Shown here: piece by piece, positions 58,001-63,319 of the stretch
Layout: each line of letters starts with the position of its first letter
Position numbering within the stretch: the first letter of the stretch is position 1
Assembly (NCBI GenBank): GCA_964016885.1
Contig: OZ024765.1
Location: forward strand, 1,240,001-1,304,000
Direction of reading: 5' to 3'
Source of the DNA: Eledone cirrhosa
Lineage: Eukaryota
Length of the DNA: 64,000 nt
Position numbers and translations under genes: made by a program
The notes under the pieces: generated by a model
The model's input: the letters and a program-made list of their open reading frames with translations, nothing else
What the model was told of the DNA's origin: nothing
The model's database searches: none

Positions 58001-61000
58001 GCTGAAATGCCAGGGGACACTTTTGTCGTCTGATAAGGGTTATTTTTTTTGATTTTCGGGATATGGAAGGACTGGAAATCTTTACCAAAACACTTGTTGC
58101 TGTTTTCAAACAGTGGTATAGTCTTCATTGTCTGTGTCGGAGAGTAAGGTGTAGATTGCGAACTGTTACTACTCCTACTACTGTTACTTCCGCTGCTGCT
58201 GCAACTGGTTACCCGATTGTTTACAAGGGGAGGAGTGACAGTTCTGTTTTGGGGACATTTTACAGGGAGGGGAAGACTGACGGGTCTGTTTTGGGGACAT
58301 TTTACAGGGAGAGGAAGAGTGACGGGTCTGTTTTGGGGATATTTTACAGGGAGAGGAAGAGTGACGGGTCTGTTTTGGGGACATTTTACAGGGAGGGGAG
58401 GAGTGACGGGTCTGTTTTGGGGACATTTTAGAGGGGAAGTTACTGAATCAATAACGGGAGACAATGAGCGCATCAACTCTTGGCTTTCTTCTGGATGGTT
58501 CTTAATGACAGTCTCGGGTAAAGGTCTTCGTCTTTTCGGCGTTTCTATGATGGGCAGACCCAGTTTTTTAATCTTGTCAGCGTCTGGTAAGGTAACATCC
58601 GAACCTAACGAAGGCGAATCTAGTAAACGAAGAAAGAAACGTGAATAAGAAGGAACAAATGTGAGGAGACGAACGGAAGGAGATAACTAAATCTAAGGTG
58701 AGACAAAAAAAAGAGGAGGAAATTTATAAATGAAAATTAGAGAAGTAACAAACCTATCACTCTGCTTCTGCCATCACTGTCTCTCTACCATCACACTCTA
58801 GCATCAGTCTCTCTCCCATCACAGTGTCTAGGACTAAAATACAATAAGGACACATTAGATAATGTAGTCCTAGATACACTGTATCTGAAATACAGCTGGG
58901 ATGGTCAGTTGGAATATCCTTGATCATAGGTCTACTGTATCAAGGCTGACCTAGGGCTAAAATACAATAAGGACACATTAGATAGTGTAGTCCTAGATAC
59001 ACTGTGTCTCAGTAAGACAGGATGGTCACAGCTGGAACATCTTTGATCATAGGTCTACTGTATCAAGGCTGACCTGGGGGTTAAACAACAAGGAAAAGAC
59101 ACATTAGATAATGTAGTCCTAGATACACTGTGTCTGAAATACAGCTGGGATGGTCACAGTTGGAACATCCTTGATCAGAGGTCTTCAGTTACAGTGATAT
59201 TTCTCTTTCTCCCCCCCCCCCCCCATTTACATGCCACTCCCTCAACCAACCAACCAACCAATCAATCAATAAATCAATCAATCAATCAATCAATCGCCTT
59301 CATAAGAGAAATCAATACATAATCAAACAGTACTCACCAACAGCAACTGTTGAGCTTTTCACCCTCTTCACTGGAGTTTTAGCCAAACTCATAAAATAGA
59401 ATCTTCCCTCCAGTTGATTCTTGGCGTTACTTATACCTTCCGTGATCAACTTCTCAGTCAACCTTCTTTCTTTCCTCACCGGAAGCGGCCTGCTGTTCTT
59501 GCTCTCCGTTTTTTCCATCAGTGAAACACTGCAGGGGCTGAAGACTTTCCCAGGCATTTTTACAGGAGCCCTACACAAAGTTTTGTTTTGGTTATTGGCC
59601 TTGGCTTTCTGTTGCTTAAACTCCTCACGCGATTCTTTTTTTGATTTGAATCTCTGAAGCGAGATCTCAGAGATTTTTGCAACAGGGAAAGGTTTAGCAA
59701 AAGCCGATTCTTTTTTGTTTGCGGCGTCAGTGTCTGAGTCCTTACTCAGTGATAAAAGAAAGTCCGCATAACCAGGTTCAGTCTTTGATTCTTCATTTTC
59801 CACTTCCATCGGTTCCTCTCGTTGATGATCTTCCTGTATTTTCTGCTTGCTGCTTACCATTTTCACGGAACTGCTGGATTCAGTAGCAGCTATACCAAGG
59901 AGAAAATCAGTGAATGGAGAGACTGCTGTTGCTGTTGTTGATGATGATGATGTTGTTGATGTTGATGATGACGATACTGTCGTTAATGTGTCTTCGTACA
60001 AAGCAGGCTCATCTATTTGAGTAGCTGCTGCAAACAAAACATCGTCTTGGTCATCGCTGTCATCATCAGACACTTTCGGTTTTGAGGTCGAAGTAAAAGA
60101 AGAAGAAGAAGCTGAAGCGTGCTTTGATGTCTTCGTCTTTGTCGGAGGAAAATCTGAACGAAAGTGATGTTGTCTTCGAGAAGAGTTCTTCGACGTGGAT
60201 TCAGACATTTTCTCTTTATTGACTTTCTTCACCTTTAAAGAGTCCACATCACAAATTTGGGTTACAACAGAAAACAAACTTTCATCGCTATCATAGTCCT
60301 CACTTAACATTTTCTCTCTCTCCAACAACTGACGTGCACTTTCTGTCATCTTTTTCAGTGGCTGTTGAGGAATTTTGAAATTGTTTGTTCCTTTAGGTGA
60401 AGATAACTTTGTTCCAGCAACGAAGTTTGCTTTCCGTTTTGGTTCGAAAGTGTCAACTTGAGTAGCTTGAAAGAAGAGTTCATCATCATCATTCTTGTCT
60501 TTATCATTGCAGTCATCTATCTGAGTTGCCATGGAAAAAATGCTCGTATCACTTTCATACTCATCGTCAGAATCTTGGGAAGGAAAAGATTTGAGAACCA
60601 TCGTTGATGTTTTCTTACTTTTCACAGACCCTTCTTTATCCAGCGATTTAACCCCTTGCCTACTGGAGTGAGAATACTTTTTATCTGCCATGGTCCTACC
60701 TGATGAGCTGTTGTGTGAATGCTTTTTATGTGGAAATTTAGGCATTTTAAATTCACTCATTTTTGTTTTAGGGGTCTCTCTGTTGTGACCATAAAAATTC
60801 ATTGGCTTTGAAATTTCAGAAAGAATATTCTTTTTGATAGGAGGGTGAGACTTTGGTGGAATAAAACTTGAATCTACTTGGGTGGATACAGAAAACAAGC
60901 TGTCATCACTATCGGAATCATCATCGCTTATCTCAAGCAGACCTTTCGTTTCAGAAGAAGGACCAGTTAACTTCAGTTTCGATGTAACATTCATTTTCTT

Positions 61001-63319: not shown

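Follow-up and report, generated by a model that had tools for sequence, protein, structure and literature searches.

A giant low-complexity exon of a senataxin (SETX) gene in Eledone cirrhosa carries ten copies of a short motif whose near-fixed core, in the family as a whole, is an aromatic residue (-4), a Thr (position 0), a Gln (+1) and an aliphatic residue (+2). The gene lies on the minus strand of a 64,000-nucleotide stretch of assembly GCA_964016885.1 (contig OZ024765.1, positions 1,240,001 to 1,304,000), here called the window and numbered from its first letter. The same core recurs in senataxins from four molluscan classes. Judging from the pattern of residue constraint, the array may serve as a damage-inducible multivalent dock whose phosphorylated threonines (pThr) are bound by an FHA-type reader, a reading that we hold to be evenly balanced between right and wrong.

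A ten-copy motif array in one exon

The original prediction, made from the letters of the window alone, had placed ten T-Q motifs in the giant exon, and all ten were located inside a minus-strand open frame of 1,336 codons (59312 to 63322; Table 1). Their register is uniform, [FY]-x-x-x-T-Q-[VI] in 10/10 copies, and their number is far above chance expectation, as randomized versions of the array segment (n = 20,000) contained 0.008 motifs on average and never more than 1, versus the 10 observed. The acidic, Ser-rich patch said to stand before each motif was recovered as a D/E/S patch ahead of all ten, while the Asp said to end them is present in 8/10, with one Glu and one Cys in the other two. 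The spacers were described as mostly unrelated, and this is true outside motifs 3 to 5, which are joined by a 165-bp tandem duplication, so that the spacers among them are related. An SQ/TQ cluster domain has at least three S/T-Q per 100 residues, and the density here, with a maximum of 5 per 100 residues, is that of such a cluster.

A read contig from run X1 spans 60003 to 61905 with 1 difference from the window and supports the array at the DNA level. In the second haplotype (sample S2), motif 9 shows three changes, among them the loss of its Gln, indicating a copy in decay. Across the exon, haplotype differences comprise 30 non-synonymous and 9 synonymous changes (39 listed of 55 sites), a ratio that, together with the decay of motif 9, shows relaxed constraint on linkers and single copies.

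Although no Pfam family matched the giant exon itself, its identity follows from the gene to which it belongs. Its phase 1 donor is in frame with the next exon, and the resulting model of 21 exons and 2,431 amino acids (aa) is free of stops and contains all seven helicase motif patterns searched for. The downstream exons follow the order of the Octopus vulgaris and Argonauta senataxins down to about 33920, and the C-terminal 860 to 940 aa are 58 to 60% identical to these two proteins and 46% identical to the relative P0004. The assignment of the window gene as a senataxin helicase holds. The joining of array and helicase exons, assumed from the start, is thus borne out by an in-frame splice model with an intact helicase and by relatives that hold both parts in one open reading frame (ORF). 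Among these, P0233 (2,117 aa; 9 Logan contigs, none above 8,208 bases), which clusters with a named Sepia pharaonis protein, combines 10 motifs with Walker A, DEAxQ and motif VI in one ORF, and P0004 and four cluster mates have array and helicase in one ORF on 6.3-to-6.4-kb contigs. Since the window gene spans 29 kb, contigs as short as those of P0233 and P0004 are most simply read as spliced transcripts.

Residue constraint within the motif

Position counts were taken in 24 proteins by freeing one position at a time. Position 0 was T in 196 cases, S in 2, A in 1 and I in 1 (of 200), and position +1 was Q in 196/201. At -4 there were 149 Y and 47 F among 200 and no aliphatic residue; aromatic frequency reached 90% at this offset and at most 8% at offsets 1 to 3 and 5 to 7. 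Position +2 was V in 115, I in 58, L in 16 and T in 1 of 231. The remaining positions are looser: -1 is mostly Ala, residues D/E/S/T occupy 57/231 at -1 and 36/231 at -2, and an Asp stands at -6 in 52% of motifs. An acidic residue at +3 was found in 116/169 motifs overall, unevenly spread among lineages (9/10 in the window, 65/68 in cephalopods, 3/16 in Physella and 0/13 in Elysia). Cephalopod copies read TQ[VI] in 61/68 cases.

The preference for Thr is a property of the array. In 16 proteins, one per lineage, array-type sites had 184 T versus 5 S, while the remaining S/T-Q sites outside the helicase of those proteins had 95 T versus 180 S. The comparison has some circularity, given that array spans were set by the T-Q pattern, and its counts are not fully independent, some coming from related species or from tandem copies. 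An internal control is provided by a block upstream of the array, Y-[ST]-Q-[ED]-[ED]-x-hydrophobic-S-D, which is common to molluscs, Owenia and the FHA-type orthologues described below, with vertebrate orthologues retaining its hydrophobic/acidic half alone. It has Ser in cephalopods and Thr in bivalves and the chiton; this block toggles freely between the two residues, and Thr-only selection is therefore special to the array.

These counts sharpen the motif as first described. T-Q had been taken as a target of ATM/ATR-type kinases, and the Thr-specific signature of the PIKK type found here (Q 196/201; 184 T versus 5 S) agrees with that. The aromatic residue had been included in the motif but under-weighted, being in fact the most fixed flanking position (196/200). 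The pT-x-x-D ligand proposed at the same time survives as a feature of cephalopods and bivalves, although its acidic residue lies outside the conserved core (D/E 116/169; Elysia 0/13, Physella 3/16). A ligand of the MDC1 TQxF/RNF8 type was rejected, with F or Y at +3 in 0/10 window motifs and 5/281 motifs of the family.

Distribution across senataxin orthologues

The orthologue sample comprised the best 150 representatives from a helicase search, 149 of which entered the tree. At least 5 motif copies were found in 15/18 tips of the mollusc clade versus 0/131 others, whose maximum was 2 and 84 of which have at least 1,000 residues ahead of the helicase. Three mollusc tips fall below 5 copies: two have a short upstream part (106 and 878 residues), and the third, P0032, has 2 copies. 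Named carriers are Octopus (2), Argonauta, Potamilus, Mya, Argopecten, Saccostrea, Mytilus, Pinctada, Liolophura, Babylonia, Biomphalaria, Physella and Elysia, covering cephalopods, bivalves, gastropods and a chiton; named non-carriers are Owenia, Branchiostoma, Ptychodera, Umbra and platypus. The array is mollusc-specific in this sample, provisionally so because non-mollusc lophotrochozoans are barely represented (one annelid model, Owenia).

Copy number ranges from 5 to 20 and motif spacing from 11 to 249 residues (median, 31), with independent tandem expansions of 21-aa units in Argopecten, 12-aa units in Saccostrea and 19-aa units in Physella. In cephalopod comparisons, 39 to 52 of 64 to 67 motif columns were identical, against 23 to 35% identity in the linkers, and between molluscan classes the linkers could not be aligned at all while the motif core was kept. 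The suggestion that the motif is selectively retained is therefore upheld, both by the conservation of motif columns over linkers in cephalopods and by its presence in four classes.

A search for array homologues among 2,339-5,000-aa proteins found none, and an Atlas search with the window array and with P0173 gave no usable match. A weak motif-profile search for carriers other than senataxin, over 7,992 candidates, matched 18 proteins, of which P0001, P0003-5, P0170 and P0181-183 are named senataxins or clear pieces of them. The other ten (P0171-P0180 and their cluster members) are 365 to 532 aa long, contain 11 to 13 motifs and come from short contigs; six weakly resemble the Saccostrea SETX linker (E 0.014 to 0.26) and four show no similarity to it. 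They are probably single oyster SETX exons. An allele comparison in this oyster-like group, of insufficient depth to tell motif and linker apart, found the core T and Q columns variable in 1/13 each and other columns in 84/258.

A putative phosphothreonine docking strip

T-Q is the signature of ATM, ATR and DNA-PK, and kinases of this PIKK type phosphorylate Ser no less readily than Thr. The near absence of Ser from the array therefore points to a threonine-specific reader, and so does the conjunction of Thr-only use with a fixed aromatic residue four positions upstream, given that the kinases themselves accept Ser. Ile can arise from Thr by one transition and is accepted by the dynein light chain LC8, yet it occurs in 1/200 motifs, which shows the hydroxyl to be important. 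In the mechanism that we favor, ATM/ATR-type kinases would phosphorylate the array threonines upon DNA damage, as the invariant T-Q suggests, and a Thr-specific FHA-type reader would bind many pThr motifs at once, as the Thr-only selection suggests. Single sites would be weak, with the array supplying avidity. The helicase might in this way be recruited to, or itself recruit repair factors at, damaged or R-loop-bearing chromatin.

FHA recognition is centred on pThr, and the PNK FHA domain packs a Tyr at pT-4, its specificity for XRCC1/XRCC4 also using acidic or phosphorylated residues at -1, +1 and +2 (PMC2655680). The MDC1 SDTD repeats bound by the aprataxin FHA domain favour Leu/Ile at pT-4, Ala/Val at +2 and an acidic residue at +3, and pThr is absolutely required (PMC2836575). 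In mouse, S/T-Q phosphorylation of SETX depends on ATR-TOPBP1 and tracks SETX localisation (PMC10942628). By analogy, the aprataxin/PNKP/APLF FHA family is the best-fitting documented class of reader; the fit is partial, and we regard this particular identification as doubtful.

Several points weigh against a phosphothreonine dock. Position +3, the usual site of FHA specificity, drifts by lineage in the array (D/E 116/169; Elysia 0/13), and a PDB profile search with the motif yielded no known FHA ligand with the exact consensus, only unrelated chains at E>1. A Thr that is buried and unmodified would give the same Thr-only selection, and the T/S counts carry the partial circularity of T-Q-defined spans and the non-independence of species and tandem copies. 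Single copies are dispensable, as the loss of the motif 9 Gln in the second haplotype indicates, and P0032, which belongs to the mollusc clade and spans the region, has just 2. A complex prediction pairing an RNF8-like senataxin FHA domain (P0017, residues 12 to 128) with an unphosphorylated two-motif piece of the window, using a predictor that cannot model pThr, scored 0.02 and speaks neither for nor against binding.

Alternative explanations

The best placed of the alternatives, still an unlikely one, is a phosphorylation-independent short linear motif for another groove, such as a CTD-interacting domain (CID) or another transcription-termination factor, replacing a lost N-terminal domain as the tether to the transcription machinery. 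The Nrd1-interacting motif (NIM) of yeast Sen1, an acidic run plus Tyr in a disordered region, binds the Nrd1 CID (PMC7110113), and array motifs likewise begin acidic and then aromatic (D at -6 in 52%). Hydrophobic residues at -5/-4 and +2 suit an extended groove, and the N-terminal domain SEN1_N is missing from the mollusc proteins examined (0/20). Against this, T-Q, the most fixed part of the array, is neither present in the NIM nor needed there, its agreement with the PIKK consensus would be a coincidence, and human SETX is without a NIM according to PMC7110113.

Somewhat less probable is a multivalent binding region for LC8 (DYNLL) like those of ASCIZ/ATMIN, GKAP or 53BP1, in which LC8 dimers would zip two senataxin chains together as a ladder with unphosphorylated T-Q as the anchor. 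PMC3078936 gives the LC8 consensus as [D/S]-4 K-3 X-2 [T/V/I]-1 Q0 [T/V]+1 [D/E]+2, with an apolar residue favoured at -5 in phage display. Cephalopod copies fit it well (TQ[VI] 61/68, D/E 65/68) and resemble the GKAP site LSIGIQVD (PMC12797016); a Panoramix TQV site is described as binding at 0.14 uM. ASCIZ provides an example of an LC8-binding T-Q array (PMC5963919, PMC12057147) and is a named ATM substrate with 11 TQT LC8 sites (PMC5963919). Family-wide, 90/169 motifs agree with 4 or 5 of 6 consensus positions, with the T-Q anchor present by definition and D/E at LC8 +2 in 116/169.

It is the residue counts across the family that led us to demote LC8. Term matches in one supplementary table of LC8 sites number 58 for TQT, one for TQV and none for TQI or TQL, whereas the residue after Gln in the array is Val in 74, Ile in 42, Leu in 17 and Thr in 1 of 169 motifs, even though Ile to Thr is a single transition. 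Ile or Val before Gln, known in LC8 ligands, occurs in 1/200, and Lys/Arg at LC8 -3 in 7/169. A core Pro, reported as inhibitory (PMC3078936), or a residue other than T/V/I at +1 is found in 63/169 motifs, including 14/16 in Physella. The strictly aromatic -5 position (Y/F 196/200, no aliphatic) is left unexplained.

A plain SQ/TQ cluster, in which phosphorylation alters the charge, conformation or condensate behaviour of a disordered arm and no dedicated reader is involved, appears improbable. It would account for the S/T-Q density (maximum of 5 per 100 residues), the invariant Gln and the acidic low-complexity context, but PIKKs accept Ser, yet the array has 184 T versus 5 S, and kinase targeting by itself leaves the aromatic residue fixed at -4 (90%, neighbours at most 8%) unaccounted for. 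Finally, the idea that the motifs arose neutrally as tandem duplication copied parts of a low-complexity exon is largely refuted and very improbable: the expansions are real (165 bp in the window; units in Argopecten, Saccostrea and Physella) and one of the haplotype differences (30 non-synonymous, 9 synonymous) falls in motif 9, but the same core persists across cephalopods, bivalves, gastropods and a chiton despite unalignable linkers.

Among other candidates, readings as a caspase site, a RAD51 FxxA motif or a TOPBP1-BRCT ligand were dropped, since the +3, -1 or -3 positions vary. An SDTD reading was dropped too, no S-D-T-D core being present in the array segment.

N-terminal domains of animal senataxins

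SEN1_N was detected in lancelet and platypus and in 0/20 full-length mollusc proteins; for the window gene, whose exons upstream of 63319 lie beyond the window, its absence rests on these relatives. FHA was likewise found in 0/20 mollusc proteins, and six-frame translation of the window gave no FHA match. An N-terminal FHA domain characterizes one senataxin clade (24/30 proteins scanned by Pfam, 32 by profile), comprising P0017, P0025, P0029 and 29 others, in which it occupies residues ~10 to 130, and its nearest PDB structure is RNF8 (E 5e-11). Drosophila CG7504 is described as a senataxin containing FHA in PMC8513875. The existence of this clade shows that selection has tied senataxin to pThr/FHA signalling elsewhere among animals. 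None of the FHA-type senataxins contained the array, and the idea that senataxin's own FHA domain reads the array was abandoned for this reason and because no mollusc FHA was found.

Cephalopod relatives of the window gene fell inside the mollusc clade (UFBoot 100) among named SETX proteins, the window model itself not being a tip. In a 52-tip IQ-TREE analysis, molluscs (100), the FHA clade (99) and three other tips grouped at 90; FastTree instead grouped molluscs with deuterostomes (0.87), so that placement differs between the two methods. Taken together, animal senataxins might each carry one of three N-terminal modules that never occur together: chordates SEN1_N, a protostome-type clade an RNF8-like FHA domain, and molluscs the 5-to-20-copy array of a pThr motif not described before (acidic-[YF]-x3-pT-Q-aliphatic). 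Molluscs would then have swapped reader for ligand within the same pThr-Gln/FHA circuit, making an R-loop helicase an ATM/ATR-switched multivalent scaffold with a reader specificity of its own (an aromatic pocket for pT-4). We consider this scenario possible, while leaning against it.

The otherwise variable linker of vertebrate-clade SETX has a motif of its own, a single S-Q-x-F-E-[FH]-E-[TS] present in 24/31 proteins (for example, P0061 residues 1091 to 1110 and P0085 residues 860 to 880) with acidic residues and Y/F-S-x-W coming after it. This motif unites an S-Q-x-F site and a Thr bearing Phe at -4, and its S-Q-x-F-E-F-E-T form offers a directly testable site in human-type SETX.

Other features of the window

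Coordinates are collected in Table 1. The block upstream of the array is labelled SIM-like there, and the Cys motif at the start of the giant exon is a possible small zinc site.

Table 1. Features of the senataxin gene in the window.
Feature	Position	Strand	Remarks
Giant low-complexity exon	59338..63319	-	1,327 codons; acceptor AG 63321-63320, phase 0; donor GTGAGT after 59338, phase 1
Array of ten acidic-[FY]-x3-T-Q-[VI]-[DEC] motifs	60011..61789	-	Residues 512-1104 of exon frame
Motif 1	61766..61789	-	Core YMCVTQVE
Motif 2	61454..61477	-	Core YSMATQVD
Motif 3	61337..61360	-	Core FIINTQVD
Motif 4	61172..61195	-	Core FIVSTQVD; within 165-bp duplication
Motif 5	61013..61036	-	Core FSIATQVD
Motif 6	60872..60895	-	Core FSVSTQVD
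Motif 7	60515..60538	-	Core FSMATQID
Motif 8	60452..60475	-	Core FFQATQVD
Motif 9	60251..60274	-	Core FSVVTQIC; degenerate
Motif 10	60011..60034	-	Core FAAATQID
Recent 165-bp tandem duplication	61044..61378		Multiplied motif units 3-5; 2.0 copies, 88% matches
Y-[ST]-Q-E-D-x-hydrophobic run-S-D-D conserved block	62390..62450	-	Upstream of array; SIM-like
Cys-x10-Cys-x-Cys-x2-Cys motif	63182..63229	-	Start of giant exon; kept in 6/7 cephalopod proteins checked
Twenty downstream exons	33919..58619	-	Remaining linker and Upf1-like SF1B helicase (AAA_11/AAA_12); 2/20 junctions weakly supported (after 46673, after 37141)

Positions 1 to 16107 are an AT-rich satellite in which a period of 143, made up of about two 71-72-bp subunits, is repeated 112.7 times with 79% matches, and an 88-bp minisatellite occupies several blocks on both strands between 17013 and 29790. 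Frameshifted reverse-transcriptase-like frames on the minus strand (26031 to 28362), recognized as such by eye with no Pfam match, end in a GIY-YIG domain (E 2.6e-07) and likely represent a decayed Penelope-like element. A long tandem repeat fills the intron between two helicase exons (38876 to 42482), creating spurious Y/I/H/T-rich open frames.

Novelty and significance

Multivalent pThr arrays are known and so is senataxin, and this motif class in senataxin appears to be new. We found no description of it in the accessible parts of the literature on senataxin, FHA/TQ motifs, LC8 and the Sen1 NIM, a coverage without a query naming mollusc senataxin and with most subscription papers outside it; the available portions of PMC8514019 and PMC12714266 do not mention it.

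Little is settled about what brings senataxin to R-loops and breaks, because the long linker of the protein is regarded as lacking conservation. A sharply defined linker motif found throughout a phylum is a ready peptide for finding the reader. Function as a pThr dock would make the array a new class of FHA ligand and would mean that one conserved helicase has had its recruitment module rebuilt three ways in animals. Should the aprataxin/PNKP fit be right, the proteins of three human ataxia-with-oculomotor-apraxia genes would be physically linked in molluscs. Were LC8 the reader, the helicases would gain a new multivalent client of LC8.

Comparison with known systems

The RNF8 FHA domain reads MDC1 TQxF repeats with F/Y at pT+3, and in yeast the SQ/TQ clusters of Rad9, Mrc1 and Rad53 are read by the FHA domains of Rad53, Cds1 and Dun1, the Rad53-FHA1-type ligand being pT-x-x-D/E. 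The mollusc array shares with both systems multiple, Thr-specific T-Q sites and the logic of multivalent FHA docking. It differs from MDC1 TQxF in having F/Y at +3 in 5/281 motifs and a fixed aromatic residue upstream instead, at -4, and from Rad53-FHA1-type ligands in that its Asp at +3 is lineage-dependent.

The ligands of the aprataxin, PNKP and APLF (and NBS1) FHA domains, namely, MDC1 SDTD and XRCC1/XRCC4, resemble the array in that Thr motifs are repeated along an acidic, disordered stretch of a protein that maintains the genome (PMC2836575, PMC2655680). The likeness extends to a hydrophobic residue or Tyr at pT-4 (Y 149 and F 47 of 200 in the array), Val at pT+2 and, often, an acid at pT+3. 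These ligands, however, are phosphorylated by CK2 and have acidic or phosphorylated side chains at -2/-1, +1 and +2, where the array has mostly Ala at -1, an invariant, PIKK-type Gln at +1 and an aliphatic residue at +2; the array is also without the SDTD core, and its carrier is a helicase.

The LC8 clients ASCIZ/ATMIN, GKAP and Panoramix also have T-Q-centred octamer arrays in disordered regions, and cephalopod copies look like their TQV/IQV-D class. The array departs from them in its TQT (1/169) and I/V-Q (1/200) counts, in the rarity of Lys/Arg at -3, in frequent Pro or non-beta-branched residues and in the aromatic residue at -5. It resembles the yeast Sen1 NIM (PMC7110113) in that an aromatic residue comes after an acidic run, within a disordered stretch of a helicase of the same family, while the NIM is C-terminal to the helicase, of single-digit copy number and without a T-Q core. 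Among other senataxins, the SEN1_N type of vertebrates and lancelet and the CG7504-like FHA type have an orthologous helicase core, a long low-complexity linker and the shared SIM-like block, and the mollusc proteins carry the array in place of SEN1_N or FHA.

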